A DNA stretch of 64,000 nucleotides, taken from NCBI GenBank assembly GCA_944393195.1, contig CALXZG010000004.1, positions 5,028 to 69,027 on the forward strand, in the 5' to 3' direction. Below, piece by piece: positions 15,263-61,160 of this stretch; the first letter of the stretch is position 1; each line of letters starts with the position of its first letter. The DNA is from an uncultured Alphaproteobacteria bacterium. Lineage in GTDB: Bacteria > Pseudomonadota > Alphaproteobacteria > CAAHEQ01 > UBA3637. The notes beneath the pieces were generated by a model, which worked only from the letters and a program-made list of their open reading frames with translations, did not search any database and was not told where the DNA came from. Made by a program: the position numbers and the translations under genes.

Positions 15263-15266
<4 letters not shown>
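13392..15266 (+). CDS. atpA: F1 ATP synthase alpha subunit with an N-terminal fusion of a delta (OSCP) C-terminal segment
   Basis: Residues ~25-95 (LDVVVESVEPLNEAQQ...LNPDLLGGISVKMGSMLLDGSIRGQLRQF) parallel the C-terminal ~70 aa of bacterial delta. From ~aa 100 onward it is canonical alpha (VSVSDGVAKVTGL, Walker A GDRQTGKTT). An alternative ATG start lies at 13422. Confidence 0.85.
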
Positions 15267-25741: not shown

Positions 25742-25939
25742 TTATTTCCTTTCTTGTTGACCTTGTTGAATCAGGTTGAGTATTTGGTTGACCAAAGCAC
25801 GTTGGCCTTCCAAAAAGCGTAGTTCGGCATCGGTTGCGTCCGGCATCAGAACGCGTTCCATTGTTCGGTGTTTCAGCCAGGCGATAACCTCCGCTCCTTC
25901 GGGGCGGCCGAACAATCGGGCAAAGGCGGCGGGAATCAT
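25742..25939 (-). CDS. Small phage protein, unknown function
   Basis: 65 aa. ATGA overlap with the portal stop, and its own stop lies 2 nt before the scaffold start. Confidence 0.4.
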   Translation of the reverse strand: MIPAAFARLFGRPEGAEVIAWLKHRTMERVLMPDATDAELRFLEGQRALVNQILNLIQQGQQERK

Positions 25940-41879: not shown

Positions 41880-42437
41880 ATGCAATCAAGATATAACCGT
41901 CACGGATTAAGATACATCTCTCAAGAGGAAATAGACGCGTTGCGCCGATTGGTTTTGTCGCGCACTTTCGGCGAATCGGACACCGATAATAAGTCTTTCA
42001 AAAGTCATCAAGATATCGCAAAAGAAATAAAACTTTTAGATGAAACATACAAAGATTTTCTTCAATTTCCCGATTCTCCGGTTTATTTGAATTACCAAAA
42101 AAAAAGAAAAAAAATGGTAAACGATTATTATGACAAAAAATATCAAGCCGATATAAAAGATCTGGCATTGGCCTTGTCAGGAACAATGTTACTTTTAATC
42201 CCGGCTACGTCGTTTTCCAAAATGCCGATTATTGCCTCTCTTTGTTGTATGGCGGCCGTTCTTTATTTTAGAGGGATGACACGGCGCGTAAGCAAACTGT
42301 TTCACCCCGTTAAAATTTCATCAAAGGATTGGTATAAAACCGATTCCCCTGCCCTTTGCGAGCCCACTCGGTTCAATTTTGAAAGAAAATCAGCCTCTCG
42401 CTCTTGTGTTTTTCCCAATGAAAAAGTAAAATCATAA
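41880..42437 (+). CDS. Hypothetical two-TM protein in AT-rich islet
   Basis: RBS aaggag. Contains an A9-G-A8 tract (42097-42114) encoding KKKRKK. No family recognised. Confidence 0.4.
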   Translation: MQSRYNRHGLRYISQEEIDALRRLVLSRTFGESDTDNKSFKSHQDIAKEIKLLDETYKDFLQFPDSPVYLNYQKKRKKMVNDYYDKKYQADIKDLALALSGTMLLLIPATSFSKMPIIASLCCMAAVLYFRGMTRRVSKLFHPVKISSKDWYKTDSPALCEPTRFNFERKSASRSCVFPNEKVKS

Positions 42438-42476
42438 CACGAAACAATCAAGTATTATACTTTTCTTATTTTGCAT

Positions 42477-43418
42477 TCATTTGGATGAATAGTGCCACCC
42501 ATCCACCGGAGGGATGTTTAATAACATGTCACGTGTCCAATCGTTACGATCTTTACCAACTTGGTAACGATGTGATTGTTCTGCCATTTGGGTAATGTTT
42601 TTATTTCTTAACCCTTCATGAAAAAAATGCCATTTTTCAGCATTAAATTTCCCACCCATGTTGTATTGCATATCCAGTAAAGCCATTTGTAATGTTCTTG
42701 GATATGTTTCAAACTCGGGAAGTTTTCTTTCTAATTCTTTTAGATCCCATTCCAAATGTTCCATTGTTTTATCGATAATGAAATGATCTGAGAGAGTTAA
42801 CTTTTGTTCGGATTTATCCCAATAATATCCAGCATCATAGTTTTTTCCAAATAGACCACTTTGTTGTAAAGCATTTAAATGCTGATATTCGGCCACCTTT
42901 TGTTCAAAGGTTGCTTCCTTTCCTTGGAATTGCCAAGGCAAAGATGTAAATGTTTTTTCATCGGGGATATAAAGTCCTATTCCTGTTGTAATATTTCCTT
43001 CTGTATCTAAATAGGCATAGCTTTTTGTATGTTCATGATTTTTCAAATGAGGCCAGTATTCTTTTATCAACTCATTATATTTTACACACCTATTTTTAGA
43101 TGGATTATTTTCTTTGTTCTTATCGTTAGCATTCTCTTGATTTTTTTCTTCAGCCTCTTTTTCAGTATGATTTTATCCGCATCTACGGTCATAAGCCGAT
43201 ACAGGATATCCCTCACGGGTATGAGCGGGAACATGCACTATTTGTTGACAATGGCCTGATGTATCATGCTTTCCGGCATGCGTTGTTTCCCCCATTATTT
43301 GAGCATTAGAAGAGTCCTGAGAATTAAGATAAAGTTGTAATAAACTGTTTGATGATGTTTCAATTCCTTGTGAAGAATTTGATTGAGATACATTTGTTTC
43401 TGATTGGTTATCTGACAT
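42477..43418 (-). pseudogene. T4-lysozyme-like (GH24) protein gene interrupted by a single in-frame TAA (43173-43175)
   Basis: ORFs 43173..43418 and 42477..43070 are in the same frame, and the 34 codons between them are open. The downstream part carries E-x8-D-x5-T with YLDTEGNITTGIG (T4L: YKDTEGYYTIGIG) and LLDMQYNMG. Confidence 0.6.
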
Positions 43419-43662
43419 TTTAACTCCTATTAAAAACAACCCACAAGGAGCTTTCCTTATGGGCAACAAAAAACAGGGTATAATTCACCCTGTTAATTAG
43501 TTTAATAATATAGCATAAATCTATTCAAAAGTCAAGAATTATTTTCCCAAACAAAAAAAGACTAATTGGATTTAAATTATCAAAAAATCCTTAAACAGTC
43601 AGCTTTTACCCCCTCCCCGTTAAGGCACAAAAAAGGGGATAGAAACATCCTCTTTTGATAAA

Positions 43663-43738
<76 letters not shown>

Positions 43739-43968
43739 GAACGGGTTATCTTATACATCAAATCATATCAAAAGGCAAGTATTTTCTTTAAAAAAGTAAA
43801 AAATTCAGAAATGCGTGGCTTTTATCCATTATTGGGAACCTTGTGAAGAGGATTGATTTCCTGAAAAAAATGATATACGTTATTTAAACGGAATCAGAAA
43901 AAAAGAGGGTCAAAGAAATTCTTTTTAATAAAATTAAGATATACGTTGATGTATGAAAGGAAATACAG

Positions 43969-44610
43969 ATGAAAGTTTTACTTGTGAACGGATCGCCGCA
44001 CAAAAACGGTTGTACATACACGGCTTTGCGTGAAATAGCGGAGCAGTTGCAAAAAGAAGGAATTGAATCTGAAATTTATTTTATCGGAACGGAAGCCATT
44101 CGCCCGTGTATGGGGTGTGGTGCTTGTCAAAAGTTGGGGCGGTGCGTGATTGATGACGCGGTTAATGCTTTTGTTGATAAAGCGGCCGATTTTGACGGGT
44201 ATGTTTTAGGATGTCCCGTTCACTATGCGTCGGCGTCAGGGGCTATTGTTTCCTTTATGGATCGAGTTTTTTATTCGGCGGCGATGGCCGGGCGGCGTAT
44301 TTTTCGGCATAAACCGGCGGCAGCTGTTGTCAGTGCGCGGCGAGCCGGAACAACGGCAACGTTGGATCAATTAAACAAATACTTTCAAATTAGTGAAATG
44401 CCGATTATTTCCGGTCGGTATTGGAACATGATTCATGGTCGGACGGCCGAAGATGTGGCTATGGATAAGGAAGGTCTGCAAAATATGCGGATTCTGGCGA
44501 AAAATATGGCTTATTTTTTGAAATGTCAACGGGCGGCGGCCGAAGCCGGGATTTTGCCTCCGGATTGGGAAAAACCGGAATTGACTAATTTTATTCGAAA
44601 GGGGGTATAA
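43969..44610 (+). CDS. NAD(P)H-dependent FMN reductase / iron-sulfur flavoprotein-like protein
   Basis: MKVLLVNGSPHKNGCT N-terminus and a Cys cluster CMGCGACQKLGRC. Confidence 0.7.
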   Translation: MKVLLVNGSPHKNGCTYTALREIAEQLQKEGIESEIYFIGTEAIRPCMGCGACQKLGRCVIDDAVNAFVDKAADFDGYVLGCPVHYASASGAIVSFMDRVFYSAAMAGRRIFRHKPAAAVVSARRAGTTATLDQLNKYFQISEMPIISGRYWNMIHGRTAEDVAMDKEGLQNMRILAKNMAYFLKCQRAAAEAGILPPDWEKPELTNFIRKGV

Positions 44611-47566: not shown

Positions 47567-48154
47567 TTATTTAAGTGCCGGTACTTTGATTTGGGCAAAG
47601 TAACCCGGAGCGATTCGCGTTTTAGCGTATTGTGAATTTTCAATCGTCAATAAATATTTTTGCCGCCCTGTCAATTTAACAGCTTCATCAAAAAAGTCTT
47701 CGGCCAATCTATCGTTGCGGGAAGCATTGACGATATAGAGAATACAAGAAGCCGTTCTGTCGGCCATACCGCACCGGGGAATGTTTTGTTTGATTTCCGG
47801 ATTGCGAACAATACCTTGTAATCCGCTGTTTTGAGCCGGAGAAGCACTGCCGCCGAACATCATGGCACCCAATAAGATCCCAAACAATAAAACGCCGCCC
47901 AGAATACCGGCAACAACCTTTGTTTGAAGCAGTTGCGGCGATAAGTTTAAATCCGTAATCAACCCGGTTGTTACAGATGCGGTTGATTCTGTCGATGAAT
48001 TCGGTGTATCGGTTGTTGTATTTGAAACCGGTAATTCAACGGTTGCCGCCGGTTGCGGAAACGGTGTTGCCGGTTGTGGTGAAACACCTGCTATCGGTTG
48101 AACCGGTGTCGGTGCTTTGGGAAGCGGAGGAGCCTGAAATTTTTGTTCGGTCAT
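47567..48154 (-). CDS. Bitopic membrane protein with proline-rich N-terminal region, unknown function
   Basis: APPLPKAPTPVQPIAGVSPQPATPFPQPAAT, then TM VVAGILGGVLLFGILLGAMMF, then a ~90 aa C-terminal domain. Start abuts the upstream stop (48154/48156). Confidence 0.45.
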   Translation of the reverse strand: MTEQKFQAPPLPKAPTPVQPIAGVSPQPATPFPQPAATVELPVSNTTTDTPNSSTESTASVTTGLITDLNLSPQLLQTKVVAGILGGVLLFGILLGAMMFGGSASPAQNSGLQGIVRNPEIKQNIPRCGMADRTASCILYIVNASRNDRLAEDFFDEAVKLTGRQKYLLTIENSQYAKTRIAPGYFAQIKVPALK

Positions 48155-48155
48155 G

Positions 48156-49337
48156 TTATTGTTCCTTTATTAAACGAATCAATCTTAACTTTAAGGTCAC
48201 TAATAATTCGCTGCCGTCGGGTGTTGTCGGATTCAAAGACGGAATCCCCAGAATGACTAATTCATTATCTAATGCGCCAATCGTATTAAATGTTGATATT
48301 TCACCAGCGCGTGTGTCTAACGTCACATCTGTTTCAACGGTATCTGTTGACCGAATTCGAGCGTTCAACAAAACAGACAGCGAACTGCTTTCATGCGGGA
48401 AAGCACACCGACCGACATCAAAACGCATTTTCCACCCGTTGGGAACAATGGCGACACCTTGACTGATCGGTGTAACGGTAAAATCATGCCCCAACGTTGA
48501 CAATAACCCTTGTGTTTTGGTATGATGTCCCGTGATTAGTGCTTTTCCCATTAAGCCGTTCGTCGCGCTGTAAATTTTTCCGGCACCGAATGTGTCGACA
48601 GTCTTTTGCCAGTTAGCGTCCGATGTTTTGGGTGTCAGGCGATAAACCTGCGTATCGGCCAACAACAGATAGGAATCGTTAACGATATAGTCAATTAAAG
48701 ATTCAACCGTCGCTTTGTCGTTTTGGGTTAACGTTAATAAAATCGTATTCTTTTTCCAATCCGGCGTCATTTCCTTTAACCCGGCACCGCGTAAGGCATC
48801 CAACATTGCCAACATCACCATGCGATTGTCGGGTAATTGTAATTCAAACCGTCCTTTTCGTGCCAGATATAATTCTTTGCGTTCGGCATCATATTTATAG
48901 AATGTATCACCGGCCCGCGTCAATTCGCCGATGACCGCCGACAATTCACCGTAGACATCTTTTGCATCTAATTCCGGATAGGCACCGTCTTCGGTATAAA
49001 CCGTAATATCGGCCTCATCCAATAATTTTTGTAATGCTTCGTCTACGGGCATGGCGTCAAAAGAAAAACCGTTTACTTCGAAACGAGGCAGCTTATCCGT
49101 TTCATCAAAAAAAGTCAGCCGAAAATCGCTTGGCTTTAAGGCAATCGTTGTGGAAATTTCCTGATCCCCGAAATTGTTGACGGAACAGCGGATTGGTGTT
49201 TCCATATTTAAAAAGCGGGCGCTTGGTGTCGTATCAAAACGGGGCGGAACGGGTGTATCGATAACAGGCATCGCCCGAATACCAATCGGTAAAGCCAACA
49301 GACCCAACATACATGTACAGAAAAATCCGATTTTCAT
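48156..49337 (-). CDS. Exported protein with secretin-N0-like module (outer-membrane component candidate)
   Basis: Signal peptide MKIGFFCTCMLGLLALPIGIRA. FSFDAMPVDEALQKLLDEADITVY resembles a secretin/STN N0 domain. The C-terminal ..NELVILGIPSL...ELLVTLKLRLI resembles the end of secretin domains. Confidence 0.35.
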   Translation of the reverse strand: MKIGFFCTCMLGLLALPIGIRAMPVIDTPVPPRFDTTPSARFLNMETPIRCSVNNFGDQEISTTIALKPSDFRLTFFDETDKLPRFEVNGFSFDAMPVDEALQKLLDEADITVYTEDGAYPELDAKDVYGELSAVIGELTRAGDTFYKYDAERKELYLARKGRFELQLPDNRMVMLAMLDALRGAGLKEMTPDWKKNTILLTLTQNDKATVESLIDYIVNDSYLLLADTQVYRLTPKTSDANWQKTVDTFGAGKIYSATNGLMGKALITGHHTKTQGLLSTLGHDFTVTPISQGVAIVPNGWKMRFDVGRCAFPHESSSLSVLLNARIRSTDTVETDVTLDTRAGEISTFNTIGALDNELVILGIPSLNPTTPDGSELLVTLKLRLIRLIKEQ

Positions 49338-49355
49338 ATTTATCCTTTCCCGATA

Positions 49356-50540
49356 CTAGCCGGCGCTTGGTTTCGTTTTATTGCCCAAAGAAAACGACAG
49401 CTTTCTTTTTACACCATTTTGGGGCGTTTGTGAAGATGTTTTTTCTTCTTTTTCTTTAATAACGTTTTGCGGAATAGATTGGCGTGTTTCCGACAGGACG
49501 ACATTTTCAATTTTGCGATACTCTTCTTTAATCGGTTTTTCGTCCAGTTCCGCATACGGATCCATCAATGGTTCAAAACCGTCCGGGGCCGGTCCTAAAT
49601 ACTCGGGCGTACCGGAGGTGTCTAACTGTCCCAATGTTTTTTGAATATCCTGACGATTCAGGTCATCACGCAGTAAATCCGTTTCTTCCGATGTTCCGTT
49701 TTGTTCGGCGATTTCTAAATCACGCTCCAATGAAATTTGCATATTTTGCAGACGCTTAACACCATCTTCATAGGAGGCCGCGATGGCACCCAACTGATCC
49801 GTGTCGGCCAATAATTCCTGAATATCCCGTTTGGTTTGTCGCATCAGATCAACCAAAAAACCGTAATGCGGATAGGCGAAAATTTCAATGTTGCCCAACT
49901 CAATACACCGCGCCGTTATCCAAGCCTGTACATTTTGTGTCAATTCCATTTGGCGAAATACTTTTTCAACAGCCCAAATCGGCTCCGGTTTTGGTTGTTC
50001 GACTTCTGTTTCGACTTTTGGGGACGGTTCAGTCACCACCTCTTGTTGTTCTGATTGCGTTATCTCGTCGGTAGGTGTTTCCGATTGAGAATTCGTCGTT
50101 GTTTGGGATATTGTTTCCGCGGGTGTTCCCGTTGTCCCGGTTGCTTCCGGTGTATCGGTTGCTTCCGGTGTATCGGTTGAGGTTATCGGCAGAGCCGCTT
50201 TTTCCCGTAATTGGGTGACGGCAGCTTCCCCGGCTTCCCCGAAAAAAGCCAGCCAATGAGATAAAACCGGAATTCGTTCGGCGATGAATGATGTATCCAA
50301 GGGGGTAGTTTGTGTCAAATATCCCTGAATTTCATTCCAGGCCGTGACCCCGGCGTAATATTGAAAGGCATGGTTTAATTTTTCCTGTTCCTCCGGCGTT
50401 AAATCCGATAACGCATCGTAAATTCGTTGAGCCCAGTCGGCCCCCAAAACCTCTGTCGCAACAGTCGTAAACTGTTCCAGTGATGCGGCGTCCCCGGTAT
50501 AAGCACGCAATGTTTCTTTCAATTTTTGAATATCAGGCAT
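49356..50540 (-). CDS. Acidic hypothetical protein with TDTPEA repeat
   Basis: 394 aa, no signal peptide. 18-nt tandem repeat at 50139-50174. No family recognised. Confidence 0.4.
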   Translation of the reverse strand: MPDIQKLKETLRAYTGDAASLEQFTTVATEVLGADWAQRIYDALSDLTPEEQEKLNHAFQYYAGVTAWNEIQGYLTQTTPLDTSFIAERIPVLSHWLAFFGEAGEAAVTQLREKAALPITSTDTPEATDTPEATGTTGTPAETISQTTTNSQSETPTDEITQSEQQEVVTEPSPKVETEVEQPKPEPIWAVEKVFRQMELTQNVQAWITARCIELGNIEIFAYPHYGFLVDLMRQTKRDIQELLADTDQLGAIAASYEDGVKRLQNMQISLERDLEIAEQNGTSEETDLLRDDLNRQDIQKTLGQLDTSGTPEYLGPAPDGFEPLMDPYAELDEKPIKEEYRKIENVVLSETRQSIPQNVIKEKEEKTSSQTPQNGVKRKLSFSLGNKTKPSAG

Positions 50541-51399
50541 TACTACCTCCTTCGGTGGTATCTTGTGATACGGGCGGAATAATCGGCGGTTTCGGGGGTA
50601 ATGGAGCCGTGGCGGAAGGCGCTTGCGGTGTCATTTGTTGTTGTGCGGTTTCAATAACATCCGAATAGTGTCGTCCCTCTTTTTCCCGTTTTTTTAAATA
50701 ATCCATCAGGCGGTTTGTTTGTCGCGCGGCCAATACCCGCGTGTTTTCGGAAGCCTTTTGAAAGGCCTGAACCAACACATCCGTTTGTGCTTTGACAATT
50801 TTTTCAACAGTTTGATTGAGGAGTTGCGTTTGTTCCAAACGATTCTTTTCACTGTTTTCGGCAGTCGGTTGTGTATTATGTATTTGTTGCAATAAAACGG
50901 ATTGCATTTTTTCCAAAGCCTGTTGCAAAAAAGCGGTTTGGCGTTCGGCTTCAGCCTGTTGCATTTGCTTCATGGCTTTCATTAATGCATTGATATGATG
51001 TGATGAATCCGTCGTATCGGGTATTCCCGTCGGTAAGGTTAACGGACCCATAAAATCCTCCTCCGGTGAGGGGAGATAACTTTCGGCACCGGAAAATGAT
51101 GTCTTTTCGTCTGACGTTTCCGATTTGCCGGCAGTTGTCGTTTGTTTCTTTAAAAAATCAAGATATTGCCGAACAACCGGTCCGCCGATAATGCTGTTAA
51201 GCATTGTTTGCACATCCGGCGGCGCATCCAACAACATTTGATTATACTGTGCGCCAAAATCCGGACCAAATACGGATAAGTGATGATACAAGTTGACCAA
51301 CCGTTGTGCCTGTTCCACAAGAGAATTTTCCTGCGGTCCTTTTTTGCGCATAAAAGTTCCCATAGGATTGTTTAATTCTTGTTCCTGTGTATCGGCCAT
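50533..51399 (-). CDS. Q-rich coiled-coil hypothetical protein with proline-rich C-terminus
   Basis: 288 aa. Overlaps the downstream gene start by 8 nt. No family recognised. Confidence 0.4.
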   Translation of the reverse strand: MADTQEQELNNPMGTFMRKKGPQENSLVEQAQRLVNLYHHLSVFGPDFGAQYNQMLLDAPPDVQTMLNSIIGGPVVRQYLDFLKKQTTTAGKSETSDEKTSFSGAESYLPSPEEDFMGPLTLPTGIPDTTDSSHHINALMKAMKQMQQAEAERQTAFLQQALEKMQSVLLQQIHNTQPTAENSEKNRLEQTQLLNQTVEKIVKAQTDVLVQAFQKASENTRVLAARQTNRLMDYLKKREKEGRHYSDVIETAQQQMTPQAPSATAPLPPKPPIIPPVSQDTTEGGSNA

Positions 51400-51413
51400 G
51401 GGTTGAATCCTTT

Positions 51414-52403
51414 CTAAGGAATTGCAATGAAAACGATGCGTTGCATTTTGGGCAGCAAATCAAACGGAATAGGTGTCGATCCCGGAGCGTCGGCCGATGT
51501 ATACGACCATGTTCCGTCGGCAGATAAGCTGACAGAAACTAATTTAATGCGATCCCCCTCTATCGGCAAGACGGCAATGTCTCCGTCGTGCAGATTTTGC
51601 CCGGGTGCAACAATGAGAACGGAACGTTGTGGCAATAAATTTCCCAATGTTGTGGTCAACAGGCGAATGCCGTAGACCCCGGTTGTTTTGGCCAGTGTGG
51701 ACGGACATAAAATGGAACCAGATGATTTTTCTTTATCTAAAATAATGGTTCCGTCTTCCTGCGGTAAACCGTAAATGGGAACGTTTACCTCTTGGGAGTT
51801 GGCCGTTTTTATCATAAAACGGCTGACCGGCAGGTCGTTATAACCGCCCTTACTGTTTTCAATTCCCGATTTATTGTCACTTTGTTTCAGTTCATCTAAC
51901 GCGCCGGACATATCCAACTCATAGATTTTCAATTGTAAATCCGATCCGGAATAACCGAGCGCATGGGCAATTTTTTCCAAAACGTGTTCTTCAACTTCAC
52001 GTTGCCCCATTTCAATGCGGTGATAAACAGCCAATGTTAAACCGGCCCCCTTTGACACCTGCATTAATGTCAATTTTTTCTGACCGCGTAAATACCGCAG
52101 GCCGGCCCCCAATGTTTTTAAGCCGCTGCCGGAATTGATTTTACTGCGACGTTCCTGTTCTATTTTCCACGCTTTTATGACCTCCGGTTGAGAGGATTCT
52201 TCCGTCACGAAAATAGCTTCCGGCGGACAGTTTAACAAAGTGGAAATAGCCTCCAATTGTTTTTCATCAATACGTCGATATCCGCGTTCAATTTTACTGA
52301 TGGCAGATAAACTGACACCCAGATGATCGGCGACCTTTTTCATAGAAATACCGCGGACACGGCGGAACATGCGAATTTGATTGGGGAAAATGATTTCTTC
52401 CAT
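51414..52403 (-). CDS. Transcriptional regulator with two XRE-type HTH domains and an S24-like C-terminal domain lacking the GxSM serine motif
   Basis: Start at ATG 52403 (RBS aaggag, 7-nt spacer). HTH1 ISMKKVADHLGVSLSAISKIERGYR. HTH2 LTLMQVSKGAGLTLAVYHRIEMGQR. C-terminal LGNLLPQRSVLIVAPGQNLHDGDIAVL...IKLV. Confidence 0.65.
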   Translation of the reverse strand: MEEIIFPNQIRMFRRVRGISMKKVADHLGVSLSAISKIERGYRRIDEKQLEAISTLLNCPPEAIFVTEESSQPEVIKAWKIEQERRSKINSGSGLKTLGAGLRYLRGQKKLTLMQVSKGAGLTLAVYHRIEMGQREVEEHVLEKIAHALGYSGSDLQLKIYELDMSGALDELKQSDNKSGIENSKGGYNDLPVSRFMIKTANSQEVNVPIYGLPQEDGTIILDKEKSSGSILCPSTLAKTTGVYGIRLLTTTLGNLLPQRSVLIVAPGQNLHDGDIAVLPIEGDRIKLVSVSLSADGTWSYTSADAPGSTPIPFDLLPKMQRIVFIAIP

Positions 52404-52497
52404 GTGGGCTCTCCTTATTGTTTTTTTCACTATACACTAAAAATTTTTTTTGGGAAATAGACAAAATGCAAAAAAATACTTTTTTTTGTAAAAAGAT

Positions 52498-52525
52498 GAA
52501 AAAAAGCCTCCGTTAAGGAGGCTGT
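52498..52525 (-). terminator. Intrinsic terminator ending the membrane-protein operon
   Basis: agcctcc-gttaa-ggaggct hairpin. On the minus strand it is followed by ttttttt. Confidence 0.75.
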
Positions 52526-52560: not shown

Positions 52561-53508
52561 TCATTTTTTTGGGGGATCGGTCTGTGCCGATGCCGGATGG
52601 ATTCTGTTTTTGAGTTTTTGTGCGGTTTTTCTTGCCGTTCGCAGGCTGTGACTGGCGGCTTTGCCTGTGGCAATAGCCGTATATTTAGCGGATTTTCCGG
52701 CTGCTTTTATCCCATATTCCGCCGTTTTGGCCGCCGCAGTAACGGCAGCTCCGGCTACGATCAGCGGAATACCGATAATCGCACCGATCACTGTTCCGGA
52801 CAGAGCCGAACCGGCCTTCATCAATCCTTTCCCGGCGGCACTACCGGCCGCGCCGACGGCTGTTCCGGCGACCTGAGCTCCTTTATCCATGGCGTTACCG
52901 GCTGATTTTGCCCCTTGGTCGACAACCTTGCCGGCGGTTTCGGACGTTTTTTCTGTTGTTTTTTCCGCAGCCTGACCGAATTTATCAAGTGGTGTGGCTT
53001 TGGAATCACCACCACTTTTATTCAGAAAGCTGTCTGTTTTGAATTTAATGGCCTCTCTGCCTTTGTTGGCCGTTCCCAGAATATTTTTACCAAAAGAATA
53101 CGCGTCTGATATGACACCGACAATTGCCGAACCGACCAAACTGGGAAGGTCTCCGGCCAAACCGCTGATCGCTTCAATAACAACGTTGGCCGAATTGATC
53201 AGGTGTATACCGAGGAAAGCCGTAAATAACAAAATCAGAACAACATATAACGCACTGCCGTCTTTTCCGCCCAAAAAGGCAGCGTATAATGTTTCGTAAT
53301 ATTCGTTCGGAACTGTTGTATCAACAACGACTTCTTGGTATTTACCACCAATACCGCTTCCCATGAATCCATCACCGGAATGCGTTGATCCCGAGATATA
53401 AGCGTTTTCCATATCGTAACTAGCTTGTCCCGTAGCGGGGGTCAGAACAATACCGCCGATCAGGCAGATCAAACCGATAATTGTTAACAGGGTTGATTTC
53501 CGAATCAT
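52561..53508 (-). CDS. Membrane protein with G/A/K-rich amphipathic repeats, unknown function
   Basis: Start at ATG 53508 (ATGA overlap with the upstream stop). N-terminal TM, central TM, then a long AGKxAxxAG-type low-complexity region with another TM. Confidence 0.5.
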   Translation of the reverse strand: MIRKSTLLTIIGLICLIGGIVLTPATGQASYDMENAYISGSTHSGDGFMGSGIGGKYQEVVVDTTVPNEYYETLYAAFLGGKDGSALYVVLILLFTAFLGIHLINSANVVIEAISGLAGDLPSLVGSAIVGVISDAYSFGKNILGTANKGREAIKFKTDSFLNKSGGDSKATPLDKFGQAAEKTTEKTSETAGKVVDQGAKSAGNAMDKGAQVAGTAVGAAGSAAGKGLMKAGSALSGTVIGAIIGIPLIVAGAAVTAAAKTAEYGIKAAGKSAKYTAIATGKAASHSLRTARKTAQKLKNRIHPASAQTDPPKK

Positions 53509-55037
53509 TTTGTACCCCCTTCGGTTTCCCCGATCATAGCGGGAACAAGCACGCTTTCGGCATCCCCCGGTAAGAAAGAGGTAAACATTAACAAAACCAA
53601 GGCTATCCCGATGGACAGGGCAATCATGCTGAGAATTGCATGAACAAAGAAATTCCATCCTGTTTTTGCATATTGACGTGAAATCGGAAAAGCGTATGCC
53701 GTGATCAGCAGTGGCATCAGGACAAAAACGAAACCCAGACGGATAAAAATATCCATCAACCTGAATGCTGCCCAAAAAGCCAATAATGTAAAGACAACGA
53801 CAATGATAATACCCAAAATATACATTGGCAACGGGTAGGGAATTTTATCTGTTTTTCCGCCTGTTGCTTTACTGGCTAATTCGGATATGACCGTTTTATT
53901 TTTGAAAGAATAACGGATGAGCAGTTGACCGGAGGCAATAAAGGGGAGGGTTTGTTTGTAAATGCGGCATGTTGTACACAGTAAGCCCGCCCGATCGGCT
54001 TCATCCAACAGGCGAACGGTTGATTTTTTTATATTGCGTTCTGTATTGGCGGCATCGTTACAATTGCTGCCGGAATCGGTACAACAACTGCATCCCAGTA
54101 CATCCGCTTTATTAAAATTTTCGGAGAAAGCAGGGGACGAGGTTAGTTGTATTGCCGTTATTTGTTGTGTGATGGTGGTACCGATACCGATCAGGGGGGA
54201 TAGGGTAATCCGGTAAAATTCAACCAAGGGTGCCTGTAAAATAACGGCAACGCATAGGACGACAAACAAACGTGTTGCAATATCAGTCATAAAGTCACTT
54301 TGTCCGCCGGTTCCTAGTTTACCGATAAACGTCAGAACATAAAAGGCTAACCAAAATAATGTCATCAATCCCAACAAAATCAGAGCCGTTGTTTTCATAA
54401 AATCTTCAACGGAAAAGACTGTTTTTTCAACGGCCTCCAACATCATATCCACAATCCCGCACGGCCAACAACGTCCTCGTTCTTCTTCTAACAGCATCGG
54501 AACGGTTTTTAGTTCTTTTGCCGTTTGCCGTTTTTGCCATTCGGTCCCTTTTTCTTTCAATTCATGGGCGCAGTCATAGTAGTTATGACGACCGGTTCCA
54601 AAAAGTGTCGCCCCCCATCCGACATCATTGGCCCCTAATTGATCGTACATATCTATATATTCATATGCTTCATCCAACATTTCAGGCGGGTTTTTCCCTT
54701 CCGGATCAAAGGATTCGTTTGATTTACAAATATCGGGCCCGGTTTTATCCAATTTTGCCACATATTCATCCGCCAGTTGATCGGTTACATTGTCATCTCT
54801 GAAAAACCCACTGGCTGTTGCCGTGTGTGGCAGGCTCAATAGCGCAATGAACCAAATGAATAGTCCCGTTTTACGACCATGATATAAATAGATTCCCAAA
54901 AAGAGCAAAATACCCAGGATGCCGATACCGCACAGAGATAGTATCATGCTTTCATTTTGCTCTGCCGGAAGAAACGCCAAGATTCCGATTAAGGCGAGCA
55001 ATCCAACAGTTTCCATGATATGTCGTATCGTATGCAT
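53505..55037 (-). CDS. Polytopic membrane protein, CWPC-motif paralog family (VirB6/TrbL-like candidate), 510 aa
   Basis: RGRCWPCGIVDMM..., a Cys-rich loop, and RLMDIFIRLGFVFVLMPLLITAYAFPISRQYAKTGWNFF, shared with 55053 and 56338. Confidence 0.5.
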   Translation of the reverse strand: MHTIRHIMETVGLLALIGILAFLPAEQNESMILSLCGIGILGILLFLGIYLYHGRKTGLFIWFIALLSLPHTATASGFFRDDNVTDQLADEYVAKLDKTGPDICKSNESFDPEGKNPPEMLDEAYEYIDMYDQLGANDVGWGATLFGTGRHNYYDCAHELKEKGTEWQKRQTAKELKTVPMLLEEERGRCWPCGIVDMMLEAVEKTVFSVEDFMKTTALILLGLMTLFWLAFYVLTFIGKLGTGGQSDFMTDIATRLFVVLCVAVILQAPLVEFYRITLSPLIGIGTTITQQITAIQLTSSPAFSENFNKADVLGCSCCTDSGSNCNDAANTERNIKKSTVRLLDEADRAGLLCTTCRIYKQTLPFIASGQLLIRYSFKNKTVISELASKATGGKTDKIPYPLPMYILGIIIVVVFTLLAFWAAFRLMDIFIRLGFVFVLMPLLITAYAFPISRQYAKTGWNFFVHAILSMIALSIGIALVLLMFTSFLPGDAESVLVPAMIGETEGGTK

Positions 55038-55052
55038 GTTTCTCTCCCGTCG

Positions 55053-56294
55053 TTACCCTTTTGCTATGGACGCAATATCGCTTTTTATTTTTTGTAAATT
55101 TTCCTTAAATTGTTTGGGGTCATGGGCCGTGACAGCCAATTTTAGCGCATTTTTCCCTAAATTTTGAAGACCTTTGACAACTTGAGTCATGGCACCGGCG
55201 CTACCGTCACCGCCAAAACGACTTGCCATTTTCGGAATATGATTGGCCAGTGCATTCATCGCCAACAAAAGGACGAAAAAAGCTAGGGCATTTGTTTTGA
55301 AATTGTGAATACCGCTGACCATAGACGGATCTGCCGTTTGGCGGGCAACGCTCAGGGCCGCCGGATATGACCGTTCGGTATACACCAAAATCAGATAAAC
55401 CATCAGGGAGATAAAAATACTGCCGAATAAGAGGGTAACCATAGCACCGAACAAGATGTCCCAACCTTTTCGAATCATGCTTTTGGTTGGTGGGAATACC
55501 CACGCAACAAATAGAAACGGAGACAAGATAATAATAACGCCGAGCCGGATAAACGAATCAATAAACAATAGTGGAAATCTGAGTAACAGATTAAAGAAAA
55601 TTAAAATGACCAAAAGACCGAACAGAATGCCCAATAACCCGGGTTCACGCAGAATTGTCATTCCCAAAGCGACACCGGAGCGTAAAGCAACCGTTATTCG
55701 GTAAATAATATCCAAGATATAGATTTTTGTGTCCCCAAAAATTTGTATGCTTGCCCCCGTACCGGAAACTGTTTCTGTAATATCCGATGGGGTCAGCAGG
55801 CGTTGTGCAACGTCGGTGTCGCTTGTTAAAACCTGTCGGATAATTTCGGCAAATGTCAACAGAACGGGTTGTACAATCAGGTGCGCAATAAAGGCAATAT
55901 AATCCCCCGGATTAAGCAACAATGCGGCCACCAGTATGGCTTTAAACAAAACAATCATAACGGATTGGACGAATCGTTTGACATTTGGTTCTTTGACGGA
56001 TACGACGAACGTGCCGACCTTAAACAACAACCAAAATAATAATCCGAAACCCAGAATGATAATGGCATGGTGTGTCATGTCGTAGGTCAGAGCAATAATA
56101 CCTTTGTCCAAGGCGGAGAACGCCGCATCGTATAAAATGCATGGCCAACAATTTTCGATGTTGGTCGTCCATTCATCGGCATTATACGGAACCTCTTGTT
56201 TACCACAGGCACACAGCAACAGGCAACACATCACTACGAACATAATGTATCGCAGATGGATCCGGTCTTTGATCTGTGTTGCCGTTAACGACAT
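55053..56294 (-). CDS. Polytopic membrane protein, CWPC-motif paralog family (VirB6/TrbL-like candidate), 413 aa
   Basis: NIENCWPCILYDAAF... and LFIDSFIRLGVIIILSPFLFVAWVFPPTKSMIRKGWDILF. Multiple TM segments. Confidence 0.5.
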   Translation of the reverse strand: MSLTATQIKDRIHLRYIMFVVMCCLLLCACGKQEVPYNADEWTTNIENCWPCILYDAAFSALDKGIIALTYDMTHHAIIILGFGLLFWLLFKVGTFVVSVKEPNVKRFVQSVMIVLFKAILVAALLLNPGDYIAFIAHLIVQPVLLTFAEIIRQVLTSDTDVAQRLLTPSDITETVSGTGASIQIFGDTKIYILDIIYRITVALRSGVALGMTILREPGLLGILFGLLVILIFFNLLLRFPLLFIDSFIRLGVIIILSPFLFVAWVFPPTKSMIRKGWDILFGAMVTLLFGSIFISLMVYLILVYTERSYPAALSVARQTADPSMVSGIHNFKTNALAFFVLLLAMNALANHIPKMASRFGGDGSAGAMTQVVKGLQNLGKNALKLAVTAHDPKQFKENLQKIKSDIASIAKG

Positions 56295-56337
56295 GTTTTT
56301 CTCCTTTTATCCTGACTATTTCCCCAAATATCGTCGG

Positions 56338-57942
56338 TTATCCCTTGGCACCTCCATCAGAACCCCCGGACGAAGATTGAGAAGACGAATCCGTATCGGA
56401 AGATCCAGAAGAATTAGTGTTGCCCCCTGTTTGAACGGGTTGTTCGCCACCGCCTTTGCTATCCGTATGTTGATCGTTTGAAATCGGTGGATTTTTCCCG
56501 CCTTGGGTTTCGTTGTTAGACGGAGGGGGTGGTGTCGGTTCTGGCTTCGGCCCGTTGTTATTATTGTTCTCGTTTGAACCACCGCCAAAGGTTCCCCGCG
56601 GTGCGGGCCCCGGTCCGCCGCCCCCTGAACCGCCACCGCCTTTGTTATCCGTATGTTGATCGTTTGAAATCGGTGGATTTTTCCCGCCTTGGGTTTCGTT
56701 GTTAGACGGCGGGGGTGGTGTCGGTTCTGGCTTCGGCCCGTTGTTATTATTGTTCTCGTTTGAACCACCGCCAAAGGTTCCCCGCGGTGCGGGCCCCGGT
56801 CCGCCGCCCCCTGAACCGCCACCGGTGTTGTTATCAGAGCCGCCTCCGCCGTTACCACCCTGACCGCCACCGGTGTTGTTATCAGAGCCGCCTCCGCCGT
56901 TACCACCCTGACCGCTACCCTTAGACCTATTACGAATAGCGCCGGCCCCGGCACCGATTAATCCGGCGGTTGCCTTGGTCGCATTTCTGGTCAAATTAAT
57001 GGTTTGCGATACATTTTGTGTCATTTGCTTATCCAGTCCGTGTGACGGTGCACCGATAAAGGCGTTAGCCAACGCTTCCGCAGTGCCAAGGAGCTTGAAA
57101 CTCAGAAGCCCGAACGCCAAAGTGATAAAGAATGTCCGGCTGAAACTCATCATATTGGCGGCTTGTTGCGTTTGACCGTTAAGCATGGCTTGGAAAATAT
57201 CTTTTCGTATGTTGTCCGGTTGAATTGCTTCGTTCATTAAAAGCAAAATAAGTGCGACAATGATGCTGAGCGATAAGAAAAAGAACAAGGTACTGACAAA
57301 CATATCCCATGCTTTTTTGGTATAGCCTGCGGTTACCGGAAATACCCATAAGACAATCCACAACGGCATTAAAGCGAAAATAAAGCCCAGTCGGATAAAT
57401 GCATCCAACAGTTTTAGCGGAAACATGACATAAATCAGGAAGAATACCAGGAAAATAAGGGCCCCGATAACAATCGTGACGATTCGATCCCACCAATCAT
57501 CGCATCCCATTTTGATCATCGTTGACCCCAGGGCCATTCCGACCCCTAACGAAGCCGATACATCCTGTAACCAGCAAATCGTTGTTTTTAAAATTTGGCT
57601 GTTACCACTGCCGAGAGCCGTATCAGATGCAAAATTGTCCGTAAAACTACATCCCTCATAGGAAACACCGGCCTCTTTGGCCGCCTGCATTAATTCTAAT
57701 CCACCGATATTGGGGGCGCTTGCCTTTTCCTCAGCCAAAGCAGTCCCGAACGGCATCATGAACAGGATCTCCTTTGTCCCTTTAATTATTGTGTTGTCAG
57801 CATTCCAAGCATTATTCCAAGCATTACTAGAGATCTCCTTTATCCCTTTAATTATTGTGTTGTCAGCCAAAGCAGTCCCGAACGGCATCATGAACAGGAG
57901 GGTTAAACAAATAAATAAAAATGTACGAATTTTATGCAACAT
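56338..57942 (-). CDS. Polytopic membrane protein of the same family with G/N/P/S-rich repetitive C-terminal tail (TrbL-like candidate), 534 aa
   Basis: LKLLDAFIRLGFIFALMPLWIVLWVFPVTAGYTKKAWDMF. The C-terminal ~200 aa are low-complexity with tandem repeats. Signal peptide is duplicated. Confidence 0.5.
   Translation of the reverse strand: MLHKIRTFLFICLTLLFMMPFGTALADNTIIKGIKEISSNAWNNAWNADNTIIKGTKEILFMMPFGTALAEEKASAPNIGGLELMQAAKEAGVSYEGCSFTDNFASDTALGSGNSQILKTTICWLQDVSASLGVGMALGSTMIKMGCDDWWDRIVTIVIGALIFLVFFLIYVMFPLKLLDAFIRLGFIFALMPLWIVLWVFPVTAGYTKKAWDMFVSTLFFFLSLSIIVALILLLMNEAIQPDNIRKDIFQAMLNGQTQQAANMMSFSRTFFITLAFGLLSFKLLGTAEALANAFIGAPSHGLDKQMTQNVSQTINLTRNATKATAGLIGAGAGAIRNRSKGSGQGGNGGGGSDNNTGGGQGGNGGGGSDNNTGGGSGGGGPGPAPRGTFGGGSNENNNNNGPKPEPTPPPPSNNETQGGKNPPISNDQHTDNKGGGGSGGGGPGPAPRGTFGGGSNENNNNNGPKPEPTPPPPSNNETQGGKNPPISNDQHTDSKGGGEQPVQTGGNTNSSGSSDTDSSSQSSSGGSDGGAKG
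56445..56816. repeat. Tandem direct repeat, 2 x 186 nt, near-identical, inside the 56338 gene
   Basis: cgccaccgcctttg[c/t]tatccgtatgttgatcg... recurs at 56445 and 56631. Encodes a 62-aa unit (..GGGSGGGGPGPAPRGTFGGGSNENNNNNGPKPEPTPPPPSNNETQGGKNPPISNDQHTD..). Confidence 0.9.
56821..56916. repeat. Tandem direct repeat, 2 x 48 nt
   Basis: accggtgttgttatcagagccgcctccgccgttaccaccctgaccgc[c/t] occurs twice. Encodes GGQGGNGGGGSDNNTG x2. Confidence 0.9.
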
Positions 57943-57956
57943 GGTTTCCTCCTAAA

Positions 57957-58586
57957 TCAACTGAAACTGAGAATTGTGGTGATGATTTTGCTGCTTAAAC
58001 TTAACGACAATTCCAAAAACGGTGTAATCAATAAACTGAAAATATTATCACCGGCCACCGTGGCGGAAGCGGTTGTAAAGGTTGTCAACAGGGCGGCGGC
58101 GATCATCCCGCGACCGAGCGGTTTGAATAAATCCTGCAAAAACTGCATCAGATTAACTTCTTGTAATTGTATCAACATTTTACCGACTTTAAATAGGATG
58201 ATAAACAAAAGCCCTAAACCCAACAAAATCATGAAAAGATTGCTTAATTCTTTGAAAATGGTTGTGGCTAATTTATTGATGGCGGTTAACAGGCTGGCAA
58301 AGGTGGAGCAAAACCAACATCCACCGTTATTCATATAATCGTTTAGTGTCGTGACAAACAAGGTTTGGTTAGCTTCATTTTTAGCATCCATGGCATCCAT
58401 GATTGCTTTTCCGCTTGTATAAAACCCCGGATCCGGTAACGGGTCTCCTTTCTGGATGGCTTGCTTTTGATGAATGGTTGTGCTTGTCAGGAGGCCGGGA
58501 TTTGCGTATGTTTTCGGCGATGACAGGATTAACAGGATGCCGAGACAAATAATGCTGAGTATTTTTTTCATCCTTTTTCCTTTCAT
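57957..58586 (-). CDS. Short (209 aa) CWFC-motif paralog: signal peptide plus N-terminal module only
   Basis: Signal MKKILSIICLGILLILSSPKTYA. NNGGCWFCSTFASLL...ILLGLGLLFIILFKVG. Confidence 0.55.
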   Translation of the reverse strand: MKGKRMKKILSIICLGILLILSSPKTYANPGLLTSTTIHQKQAIQKGDPLPDPGFYTSGKAIMDAMDAKNEANQTLFVTTLNDYMNNGGCWFCSTFASLLTAINKLATTIFKELSNLFMILLGLGLLFIILFKVGKMLIQLQEVNLMQFLQDLFKPLGRGMIAAALLTTFTTASATVAGDNIFSLLITPFLELSLSLSSKIITTILSFS

Positions 58587-59182
58587 GCGATTAGGGTTTT
58601 GACAACGTAGCTGCTGAGGTTGAGAGCCATTTCTAAAAACGGTGTGATCAACAAACTGAAAATATTATCGTCGGTAACCACGGCAGAAGTGGTTGTAAAA
58701 GTCGTCAGTAGAGCGACGGCGACAATCCCACGGCCGAGCGGTTTAAATAAATCCTGTAAAAACTGGGCGCCATTCACTTCCTGTAATTGAAATGCCATAC
58801 GACCAACCTTAAAAGCAATAACAAATAGCAGGCCGAATCCCAATAAAATCATGGCCAGATTGGCCAAAGCCTTAAACATGGTTGTTGCGATTGTATTAAT
58901 AGCGTTTAATAAAGCGGCAAACATGGGACAGAACCAACAACCACCGTTGTTCATATAACTTTTCAGTGTCGTGACAAACAAGGTTTGGTTAGCTTCATTT
59001 TTAGCATCCATGAGTGCTTTTCCGCTTGTATAAAACCCCGGATCCGGTAACGGGTCTCCTCTCTGGATGGCTTGCGTTTGATGAACGGTTGTGCTTGTCA
59101 GGAGGGCGGGATTTGCGTATGTTTTCGGCGATGACAGGAAAAGCAGAATACCAAAACAAACTATACCGAGTATCTTTGTCAT
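58583..59182 (-). CDS. Short (199 aa) CWFC-motif paralog: signal peptide plus N-terminal module only
   Basis: RBS aaaggagga. Signal MTKILGIVCFGILLFLSSPKTYA. NNGGCWFCPMFAALL...ILLGFGLLFVIAFKVG. Confidence 0.55.
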   Translation of the reverse strand: MTKILGIVCFGILLFLSSPKTYANPALLTSTTVHQTQAIQRGDPLPDPGFYTSGKALMDAKNEANQTLFVTTLKSYMNNGGCWFCPMFAALLNAINTIATTMFKALANLAMILLGFGLLFVIAFKVGRMAFQLQEVNGAQFLQDLFKPLGRGIVAVALLTTFTTTSAVVTDDNIFSLLITPFLEMALNLSSYVVKTLIA

Positions 59183-59359: not shown

Positions 59360-59995
59360 ATGACAATCTCGGAGAAAATTTTTCAGATTTACCAACAATT
59401 TTATGATCAACGGTCGGTTTTGCAGGAGGCTCCTCCTTTGACCGTTAATCCGGCCGTTGTCGGAATGCGTGATTTTCCGGTTGAACAGGCGATGACCGAA
59501 TTAAACGCTTTGGTGTCTTATTTATTGGGACGTGCGGATGTTCGTAAGATTTCTTTCGGTGATGCGTTAAATATTGTGGACAGCGCTTATGCAGATCAAC
59601 CGTTTTGGCGGGATTTGTTGTTGGATTATTTCGATGTTGTTTTATCGCAACGGGAAGAAGCCTATATCCAAAAAGGAAAGGAGTTACAACAACAGTCCGA
59701 GAATGTCATTGATGAAATTGTTCGTTTCGAAGCCAAACGGGCGGCCGTCGTCCGCTTTTTTGCCGATAAAATACGAGAGGCTAAATTTCGTGTGGATGCA
59801 TCATTGTTGGTGTATAACTACATTAAAATGATGGGGCATGATGCGGCTAAGGCTAAGGCCGAAGTGGTGGCTAATCCCGCTTATTTCGCGCCGATTCAGG
59901 TTAAGGATGAAACCGGTCGGAAGGTGTTAACGCCGGCGCAGGCCAGGGAGGAAAACAAGCGTCTCGGGCAATTTTTAAAGAAGCTTTTTGTGTAA
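59360..59995 (+). CDS. Hypothetical protein (helical, no signal peptide)
   Basis: RBS ggaggag. 211 aa. No family recognised. Divergent from the membrane-protein array. Confidence 0.4.
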   Translation: MTISEKIFQIYQQFYDQRSVLQEAPPLTVNPAVVGMRDFPVEQAMTELNALVSYLLGRADVRKISFGDALNIVDSAYADQPFWRDLLLDYFDVVLSQREEAYIQKGKELQQQSENVIDEIVRFEAKRAAVVRFFADKIREAKFRVDASLLVYNYIKMMGHDAAKAKAEVVANPAYFAPIQVKDETGRKVLTPAQAREENKRLGQFLKKLFV

Positions 59996-59996
59996 A

Positions 59997-60025
59997 GTTG
60001 ACAAAAAAGCGGAAGACGTGTATAC
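59997..60025 (+). promoter_or_regulatory. Sigma70-type promoter
   Basis: TTGACA, 17-nt spacer, TATACT, ~35 nt upstream of the 60060 ATG. Confidence 0.55.
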
Positions 60026-60059
60026 TATTCGTAAAAGTATAATATTATAGGAGGTCACA

Positions 60060-61058: not shown

Positions 61059-61160
61059 AATCCGTTTTTCGGGAATAAAAGTCGTGTTTTTAACACGGCT
61101 TTTATTTTTTTCTGGTAATTCCGGTTATTTTGGAGTATAAGCGGAACATAAGGAGTTATC

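Follow-up and report, generated by a model that had tools for sequence, protein, structure and literature searches.

Which machine do five genes serve when they form an operon directly behind an array of membrane-protein genes? The question is raised by a 64,000-nt stretch of contig CALXZG010000004.1 from an uncultured Alphaproteobacteria bacterium (the window, to which all positions refer), whose minus strand carries, between 47567 and 52430, the genes R, P2, P3, P4 and P5, together termed the cassette. A first-pass annotation made from the sequence alone had taken these genes, with the membrane proteins encoded upstream, for the parts list of an envelope-spanning apparatus. That idea fits the results reported here, with the correction that two of the parts belong to known superfamilies: the array consists of VirB6/TrbL paralogues, and the exported protein P4 is in all likelihood a secretin. 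On balance, we lean towards regarding the operon as an accessory module, conserved as a set of five genes, that belongs to a divergent type IV secretion system (T4SS) island of the P type (VirB, rvh/Cag-like) in uncultured gut and rumen Alphaproteobacteria.

The exported protein P4

Type II and type III secretion, type IV pili and filamentous phage have secretins as their hallmark outer-membrane channels, and P4 (48156–49337, minus strand, 393 aa) is almost certainly a true secretin homologue. Its layout comprises a signal peptide, seen as a signal-like hydrophobic segment at the N-terminus, followed by an N0 domain at residues ~60–160, an N3-type ring domain and a secretin domain of ~112 aa. 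The family counts 123 homologues, all in uncultured Alphaproteobacteria, and P4 has no sequence or profile match in Pfam, NCBIfam or PDB. An AlphaFold2 (AF2) model built from 49 family sequences (predicted local distance difference test score, pLDDT, 84; predicted TM-score, pTM, 0.77) contains an N0-like domain and beta-alpha-beta-beta-alpha elements. When this model was searched against PDB with Foldseek, the top 33 matches were all secretins (BfpB, PilQ, InvG, GspD, pIV) with a probability of ~1, led by BfpB (E 3e-9) and including the N0-N1 crystal structures 3ezj, 4e9j and 3gr5 at E ~1e-3, and a search of BFVD led to inovirus pIV proteins. The TM-scores of these matches are low (0.15–0.30), which is attributed to the comparison of a monomer prediction with subunits taken out of oligomers, and independent evidence was therefore sought at the sequence level.

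A profile of the P4 family, run against 1.84 billion representative proteins, returned 213 matches, the tail of which (E 1e-16 to 1e-9) consists of proteins of 450–850 aa. Of ten tail matches tested, nine pass the gathering score of PF00263 (Pfam Secretin) and one has a TcpQ domain fused to it. When aligned with one another, 42 of the tail-match secretins define a family profile that displays the lipobox consensus LxGC and has BfpB as its closest solved relative. Profile-profile comparison with hhalign matched the P4 family to this profile with a probability of 99.9% (E 3e-31) over 337 columns, covering P4 residues 56–393 and thus N0, N3 and the whole secretin domain, up to the last strand, where ELLVTLKLRLIRL stands against SELVxVLxPRV. 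The first-pass annotation had credited P4 with a secretin-N0-like module and had recognised no known secretion component among the four proteins that follow the regulator. The N0 module is indeed present, but homology continues through N3 and the secretin domain, and Foldseek, the profile search and hhalign agree that P4 is a full, if shortened, secretin homologue.

The shortening is confined to the secretin domain, where three deletions of ~18, ~21 and ~13 columns relative to the related secretins leave ~112 aa compared with ~170 aa in PF00263, about a third less. Two features of this domain set P4 apart: RPGDxILLGGI, the best-conserved secretin segment, is deleted, and PF00263 is matched neither by P4 nor by any of 49 family members at E up to 1. 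The only matches are to STN and Secretin_N, each by three family members at E ~0.04. The shortened domain and the missing segment explain why the curated Pfam and NCBIfam models overlook P4, and genome surveys that depend on such models consequently undercount secretins. The same missing segment, together with the failed Pfam Secretin model, makes pore formation by P4 uncertain. The deletions fall in the central secretin domain, which we take to be the inner barrel and gate of solved secretins; a reduced gate region may give P4 a narrower or differently gated pore, and these natural deletions offer a test case for how far the gate region is needed.

The P4 family consensus contains no lipobox, and there is no Cys in its signal region, the first invariant one being C51 in a conserved segment before N0. 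A second invariant cysteine, C311, lies in the secretin domain, and the two could form a disulfide tether. We place P4 in a new subfamily within the secretin superfamily, marked by its shortening, rather than in the type IVb group, because it lacks a lipid anchor, an N0-like partner and pilus machinery, and fails the Pfam secretin-domain model.

Genomic context and conservation of the cassette

One genome per GTDB species was scanned, and 103 of these genomes encode a P4 relative. The loci analysed number 84 (80 from GTDB species representatives and four from metagenome assemblies), of which 82 are non-duplicate; their open reading frames (ORFs) were labelled by iterative profile search and clustering. 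All hosts are gut, rumen or faecal Alphaproteobacteria represented by metagenome-assembled genomes, and we take the few records named Lactobacillales or Holdemanella to be binning errors. The genes follow one another as R-P2-P3-P4-P5 as far as each contig permits, with 63 loci complete and the rest cut by contig ends. Such recurrence of gene order across the 82 non-duplicate loci, along with the 103 genomes that encode a P4 relative, argues that the ORFs are not due to chance; across the cassette interval of the window there are neither RNA genes nor credible plus-strand genes.

The neighbourhood of the cassette points to a T4SS. Flanks were counted in the 42 loci with at least 3 kb on both sides. 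A VirB6 array alone is adjacent in 17 of these well-flanked loci and an array together with VirB9-11 in a further 11, so that the array adjoins the cassette in 28 of the 42, in two different arrangements. The expectation that cassette and array would co-occur in other genomes was thus borne out. In related loci, arrays of 2–5 copies precede R, and many loci carry, downstream of and convergent with the cassette, genes for VirB11, a giant VirB10 and CagX/VirB9. The VirB11 protein (cluster c5) matches Pfam T2SSE and, in PDB, best matches Brucella VirB11 (2gza, E 3e-19). The giant VirB10 (cluster c6, 17 loci) measures 1500–2455 aa and combines beta-flower and RHS repeats with a TrbI/VirB10 C-terminus (TrbI E 6e-30); one example (locus L003, 13076–20443, up to 2455 aa) has 18 matches to 5-fold beta-flower repeats as well as RHS and DUF3659 repeats before its TrbI domain. 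VirB9, VirB10 and VirB11 together are a feature of P-type T4SSs that is found in related loci and not in the window. In related genomes, the ATPase that the first-pass annotation had not seen in the locus does lie beside the cassette: it is VirB11, in the company of VirB9 and the giant VirB10.

The same annotation had noted the lack of a pilin and a peptidase, and this holds more widely: within 10 kb in the 84 loci there is no pilin, platform protein, pilus ATPase or other assembly ATPase of the GspE/PilB/Zot type, or prepilin peptidase, and the sole protein of the T2SSE family is VirB11. VirB4, VirB8 and VirD4 were likewise not seen in the 10-kb flanks of related loci.

A rearranged group of loci bears on the association. 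In L066, L074 and L083, virB10-virB11-P2-P3-P4-P5 run on the same strand, with a virB11-P2 gap of ~90–110 nt. R is inverted in these three loci and in L075, and the VirB6 array follows R in L074, L075 and L083, whereas L066 ends at R; L075 displays P3-P4-P5, the inverted R and the array as in L074 and L083, its contig being cut before virB11. Across this rearrangement, the module thus keeps its T4SS neighbours.

In the window, the upstream operon of VirB6/TrbL-like paralogues and M1 extends over 52561–59182 on the minus strand. It encodes M1, an Ala/Gly/Lys-rich membrane protein of 316 aa (52561–53511), the VirB6/TrbL-like proteins M2 (53505–55037), M3 (55053–56294) and M4 (56338–57942), and S1 and S2 (57957–59182), short paralogues of ~200 aa each. 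The membrane array is assigned to the VirB6/TrbL paralogues on the basis of its family, in which 14 of 42 members match Pfam TrbL/VirB6 (PF04610; best E 1e-6), one has a faint precomputed TrbL match and no other family recurs. In a Pfam scan, the three window copies have no TrbL match on their own, and the array profile returned only low-complexity noise when searched against solved structures. S1 and S2 share a signal-like N-terminus and a CW(F/P)C motif with the N-termini of M2 and M3; they stand at the head of the array and have the appearance of short or truncated paralogues. In M4, the C-terminal tail, rich in Gly, Asn and Pro, contains a 186-nt tandem duplication (2.1 copies, 97% identical; 56445–56835), followed by 48- and 24-nt repeats (56809–56919). 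Beyond the array lie U1 (211 aa), U2 (332 aa) and U3 (361 aa) at 59360–62246 on the plus strand, which belong to no known family and diverge in orientation from the array; the position of U1 is conserved in at least 10 related loci, and U1 may belong to the island. Downstream of the cassette, the window carries tsaB and rimI, as do its closest relatives.

In some loci that have no T4SS genes next to the cassette, its neighbours are proteins with ankyrin repeats, Sel1 repeats and EF-hands (L044 2881–4038, L011 2177–3577, L042 3664–4656). Among host-associated bacteria, T4SS effectors typically bear eukaryote-like domains of this kind.

Nothing obvious marks the module as mobile. No relatives of the cassette occur in IMG/VR (2.9 million viral contigs) or PLSDB. 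A single match in the phage collection, L086 (GenBank MT835708.1, 20.9 kb, human faeces), is labelled 'UNVERIFIED: Bacteriophage sp.'; it carries four VirB6-like genes followed by R-P2-P3-P4-P5, and none of its ORFs matched a phage-like protein, the unmatched ORFs lying outside the Pfam/PHROGs scan. This record is a mislabelled bacterial contig of the same chromosomal island. A phage or plasmid origin of the cassette was rejected on these grounds.

The same observations bear on the proposal that the cassette is decaying and no longer functional, the leftover of either a type IVb pilus cluster or a filamentous prophage, with R as the CI-like repressor and P4 as the pIV-like secretin. Among proteins that can be recognised, those nearest to P4 are the pilus secretins that conjugative elements encode, pIV is also matched, the secretin domain has suffered deletions, and pilin, ATPase, platform protein and peptidase are absent, all of which speaks for a remnant. 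Decay, however, is difficult to reconcile with a P4 family that retains 31 invariant and 31 nearly invariant columns among sequences down to 37% identity, with intact ORFs whose order is shared by 82 loci and P4 relatives in 103 species-representative genomes, or with a nearly invariant R. IMG/VR and PLSDB gave no relatives, the one phage record is the mislabelled island, and there is no Zot-like ATPase or replication gene. We consider this explanation very improbable.

P2, P3 and P5

The three remaining proteins are partner proteins without a known family after profile, structure and profile-profile searches, so that of the four orphans initially proposed, three retain that status and P4 does not. 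P2, P3 and P5 have no Pfam or NCBIfam match, PDB profile searches of P3 and P5 gave no relevant match, and a Pfam scan of the longest P2, P3 and P4 variants disclosed no extra domains. The earlier predictions of protein location agree with the present ones: R has two HTH_3 domains, P2 and P3 lack any hydrophobic segment, the N-terminus of P4 is signal-like, and P5 combines a single transmembrane (TM) helix with 19 Pro.

P2 (50533–51399, minus strand, 288 aa) and P3 (49356–50540, minus strand, 394 aa) reach a maximum KD19 of 0.70 and 1.00, with pI values of 5.45 and 4.43, respectively. Both are soluble proteins, for the most part disordered or coiled-coil, in which the conserved domains and motifs are short. 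P2 consists of a conserved N-terminal helical domain (~residues 18–100), to which its conservation is limited, followed by coiled-coil or low-complexity sequence; it was found in 74–77 of the 84 loci and varies from 137 to 879 aa. P3 is present in all 84 loci; its homologues number at least 153, and no Pfam domain is matched in any of them. Its N-domain (residues 1–115) is joined through an acidic Thr/Glu/Pro linker to a C-domain (~190–300) and a basic tail, and the family alignment reveals the invariant motif G-x-APDGFE (G316, A318–E323). An 18-nt repeat present in 2.3 copies (50138–50179) encodes TDTPEA repeats in the linker. In the most distant clade, P3 has shrunk to its C-domain (185–230 aa), and P2, at 537–879 aa, ends in a GFIDPY motif like one borne by P3 elsewhere. 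Domains have thus moved between the two genes, which argues that both proteins act together.

These features also raise the alternative that P2 and P3 are substrates of the T4SS, or substrate adaptors or chaperones, and that only P4 and P5 form an envelope structure. Both proteins are acidic and mostly of low complexity, range in length from 137 to 886 aa and have swapped domains, and the ankyrin, Sel1 and EF-hand proteins near the cassette in some loci would suit such a role. The basic tail of P3 in the window's clade, KRKLSFSLGNKTK, presumably resembles VirB/D4 C-terminal signals; it is missing from many clades, which speaks against the substrate role, and as a universal T4SS signal it was rejected because it is limited to some of them. 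Effectors normally turn over quickly, whereas practically every locus retains P2 and P3 between R and P4, with their core domains preserved. A substrate role is accordingly regarded as improbable.

P5 (47567–48154, minus strand, 195 aa, 19 of them Pro) is a bitopic inner-membrane protein with 33 homologues and is present in 81 of the 84 loci, always immediately 3' of P4. An N-terminal FxAPPxP peptide, given in full by the family alignment as M-T-E/D-x-x-F-x-A-P-P-x-P, is followed by a variable Pro/Gln-rich cytoplasmic segment, a single TM helix at residues 79–100 and a periplasmic domain of ~85 aa with two invariant cysteines (C128 and C137). In the AF2 model, this domain has a pLDDT above 90 and a beta-alpha-alpha-beta core. 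Foldseek found nothing significant for the model (best E 1.3), and a resemblance to LysM ectodomains (E 1.3 to 5.7) is a weak lead from the predicted fold. P5 was tested as a TcpQ/BfpG partner and rejected in that role: hhalign against the TcpQ-fused secretin gave a probability of 0.2%, and Foldseek returned no BfpG or N0 match. Nor are P2, P3 and P5 diverged type IVb-pilus proteins, as none exceeded a probability of 2% in hhalign comparisons with all 13 proteins of a Rhodoferax plasmid pilus cluster.

The regulator and the transcription unit

R is an XRE-family regulator with two Cro/C1-type helix-turn-helix (HTH) domains. Pfam HTH_3 is matched twice (residues 10–62 and ~98–156; E 4e-22), and the PDB matches are ClgR, SinR, C.BclI and CylR2. 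The gene had been read as a 338-aa ORF from GTG 52430 (51414–52430, minus strand); the gene and its HTH pair stand, but the start is probably ATG 52403, giving 329 aa (51414–52403), given that an AAGGAG Shine-Dalgarno sequence lies 5' of this ATG and the N-terminus MEEIIFPNQIR is invariant among all relatives. R is the best-conserved protein of the cassette, with 76 invariant columns within residues 1–170 among 30 relatives, across clades in which P4 is only ~35% identical, and a variable C-terminal domain. Peptidase_S24 appears as a weak precomputed match in one R homologue and is matched by the window's R neither in Pfam nor in a PDB profile search. Where LexA-type proteins have GDSM-x-P, R reads LGNLLP, in which the Ser of the self-cleaving Ser-Lys dyad appears to be missing.

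The cassette forms an operon of its own, with separate termination, behind the membrane array. Its five minus-strand genes are spaced by 14, -8, 18 and 1 nt from R to P5, and the tight coupling and coordinates first reported were recovered unchanged from the ORF list. The terminator previously placed between array and cassette was also found, as a terminator-like hairpin at 52523–52505 (minus strand; AGCCTCC-TTAAC-GGAGGCT followed by TTTTTTT; 7-bp stem with 5 GC pairs, 5-nt loop) that ends the VirB6-like array operon 5' of R. A second terminator-like hairpin (47548–47524, minus strand; 9-bp stem including 6 GC pairs, loop of 7 nt, T-rich tail) lies 19 nt past the P5 stop codon and ends the cassette. 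With hairpins flanking both ends and such tight spacing, the cassette looks by its layout like one transcription unit.

The promoter region of the cassette (52429–52468, minus strand) contains a conserved element, CATTTTGTCTATTTCC, at 52468–52453 and a promoter-like pair composed of TTCCCA (-35-like, 52456–52451), a 16-nt spacer and the -10 hexamer TATAGT (52434–52429). CATTTTGTCTATTTCC and GTGTATAGT are near-identical 5' of R in dozens of related loci. The conserved element differs by clade: the window's clade has CATTTTGTCTATTTCC, and the distant clade has the palindrome ATTTGTACACAAAT. The HTH domains of R are almost invariant in both. In the distant clade (L058–L083, e.g., L075 and L083), the R promoter region carries the perfect palindrome ATTTGT-AC-ACAAAT, followed by TTGTC and TTTTTTTGTAC. 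CATTTTGTCTATTTCC is a candidate binding site for R, and CATTTTGTCTATTTCC and TTGTACACAA are put forward as candidate R target elements; R would control the cassette, probably through autoregulation. CATTTTGTCTATTTCC occurs only once within the window. An operator common to the cassette and the VirB6 array was therefore rejected.

This separate transcriptional identity lends itself to another interpretation, in which the cassette is a self-contained secretin device independent of the T4SS, for example an export or uptake channel or a trans-envelope signalling unit, and shares the island through common history or regulation. Promoter, regulator and terminators are all the cassette's own, the VirB6 array lacks the conserved promoter element, and one third of the well-flanked loci have no adjacent T4SS gene. 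There is also recent precedent for secretins in non-classical exports such as slime secretion (PMC12475490). The 84 loci, however, offer no energising ATPase, platform protein or substrate gene for such a device except VirB11. In addition, adjacency to the VirB6 array survives the inversion of R (L074, L075 and L083, with L066 cut before the array), and in three loci P2–P5 continue a virB10-virB11 string on the same strand. We therefore regard an independent device as unlikely, although less so than a role of P2 and P3 as substrates.

Proposed function

The accessory-module reading of the operon rests on claims of differing strength. That the cassette is functionally tied to the T4SS at all appears probable. 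A specific chain running from P4 through P5 to P2/P3 is proposed tentatively, and it is rather doubtful that the whole represents a chimeric machine, in which a secretin derived from type IVb pili has become fixed as a structural T4SS part (an outer-membrane conduit or outer ring) that P5 ties to the inner membrane and P2/P3 to the cytoplasm. In the assembly envisaged, P4 would multimerise into an outer-membrane or periplasmic ring, and P5 would act as its inner-membrane partner, with the periplasmic domain contacting the secretin base or the cell wall. The cytoplasmic FxAPPxP peptide of P5 might recruit P2 and/or P3, in the manner of PilN and PilM. The resulting trans-envelope assembly would work with the T4SS as an extra outer ring or conduit, or in placing the giant surface VirB10 or the VirB6 extensions.

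Besides the low TM-scores and the incomplete secretin domain of P4, several observations weigh against this reading. The genes virB9, virB10 and virB11 are absent from the window itself, and 14 of the 42 well-flanked loci have neither VirB6 nor VirB9-11 adjacent, a count that scores the flanking genes. CATTTTGTCTATTTCC is absent upstream of the VirB6 array in a scan of the window, leaving shared regulation without support, and P5 resembles neither TcpQ/BfpG nor PilP/GspC. As far as is known, moreover, canonical T4SSs work without a secretin, using VirB7, VirB9 and VirB10 instead.

If the chimeric machine is real, it would be the first T4SS that uses a secretin, and it would do so with three partner proteins of new families. 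In more than 100 species a secretin lineage has become fixed inside T4SS islands without any other pilus or type II secretion system component, which points either to an undescribed extension of T4SS envelope architecture or to a minimal secretin device with three small partners. Little is known of how the hosts live, which are abundant, uncultured Alphaproteobacteria of gut and rumen, and the combination of an rvh/Cag-like T4SS with ankyrin, Sel1 and EF-hand proteins hints at contact with eukaryotic or bacterial cells.

Other features of the window

Several features lie apart from the island. The ORF at 25936–27426 (minus strand) encodes a phage head-to-tail connector (portal; PF12236, E 1.7e-124), and large ORFs without a known family are located nearby (19260–20672 and 21452–23371); the region of ~19–28 kb is probably a prophage or a prophage remnant. 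A patch of low GC content at 42000–44000 (34.8% versus ~46% elsewhere) contains a weak lysozyme-like ORF (42477–43070) and small ORFs of no assigned function, adjoins a tRNA-Lys gene (43663–43738) and may be a small foreign insertion. The ORF at 13392–15266 (plus strand) joins the C-terminal half of the ATP synthase delta subunit (OSCP) in frame to a complete alpha subunit, which could reflect a fusion, a split atpH or an over-extended start.

Comparison with known systems

The type IVb-pilus secretins, namely BfpB of enteropathogenic Escherichia coli (EPEC; PDB 9u5s), TcpC, and PilN of IncI plasmids and integrative and conjugative elements (ICEs), share with P4 the domain order N0-N3-secretin. 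BfpB is composed of N0, N3 and secretin domains and lacks N1, N2 and S domains (PMC12531336). Unlike these secretins, P4 has no lipobox or LG anchor, where its relatives carry LxGC, and its secretin domain measures ~112 aa against ~170 aa, with three deletions that take in RPGDxILLGGI. The loci differ as well, since no pilin, assembly ATPase, platform protein or prepilin peptidase lies near the cassette, and P5, which is encoded downstream of P4, is not N0-like as TcpQ and BfpG are. Type IVb-pilus secretins are often encoded on conjugative elements that also bear a T4SS, and the Rhodoferax plasmid example is typed MPF_T.

A similar logic connects the cassette with PilQ-PilP-PilN/O-PilM and GspD-GspC-GspL/M, in which a secretin gene is followed by a gene for a bitopic protein with a conserved cytoplasmic N-terminal peptide. 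In type IVa pili, the N-terminal peptide of PilN recruits PilM, and P5 may work in parallel fashion. The PilQ and GspD connectors show no sequence or fold similarity to the proteins of the cassette, and P2 and P3 are neither actin-like nor GspL-like.

Among T4SSs, the rvh system of Rickettsiales and the Cag system of Helicobacter offer the closest likenesses to the island and its related loci. VirB6 paralogue arrays are described for rvh (PMC2653234). Tandem, divergent VirB6/TrbL arrays with long extensions are common to rvh and the island. The Cag system has a giant, repeat-bearing VirB10 (CagY) next to CagX/VirB9 and VirB11, as do the related loci, although the types of repeat differ. We know of no secretin homologue, nor of counterparts of P2, P3 or P5, in the rvh and Cag systems. 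P2, P3 and P5 showed no correspondence to any named VirB, Dot or Tra component in Pfam, NCBIfam and PDB profile searches or, for P5, with Foldseek. Literature searches, whose coverage was incomplete and whose outcome is suggestive only, yielded no account of such a gene set or of a T4SS locus that encodes a secretin.

Precedent for N0 domains in the outer-membrane complexes of T4SSs is nevertheless provided by VirB7 of X. citri and by DotD. The T4SS of X. citri includes an N0-like domain in its VirB7 (PMC12531336). Whereas X. citri VirB7 and DotD are small lipoproteins with one N0 domain each, P4 retains both N0 and N3 together with a remnant of the secretin domain. The N0 domain of DotD, which we take to be of the secretin type, likewise belongs to a T4SS outer-membrane complex. 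The secretin and VirB6 superfamilies are both known; what is new here is the combination of a secretin with a T4SS island, and the shortened form of the secretin itself.

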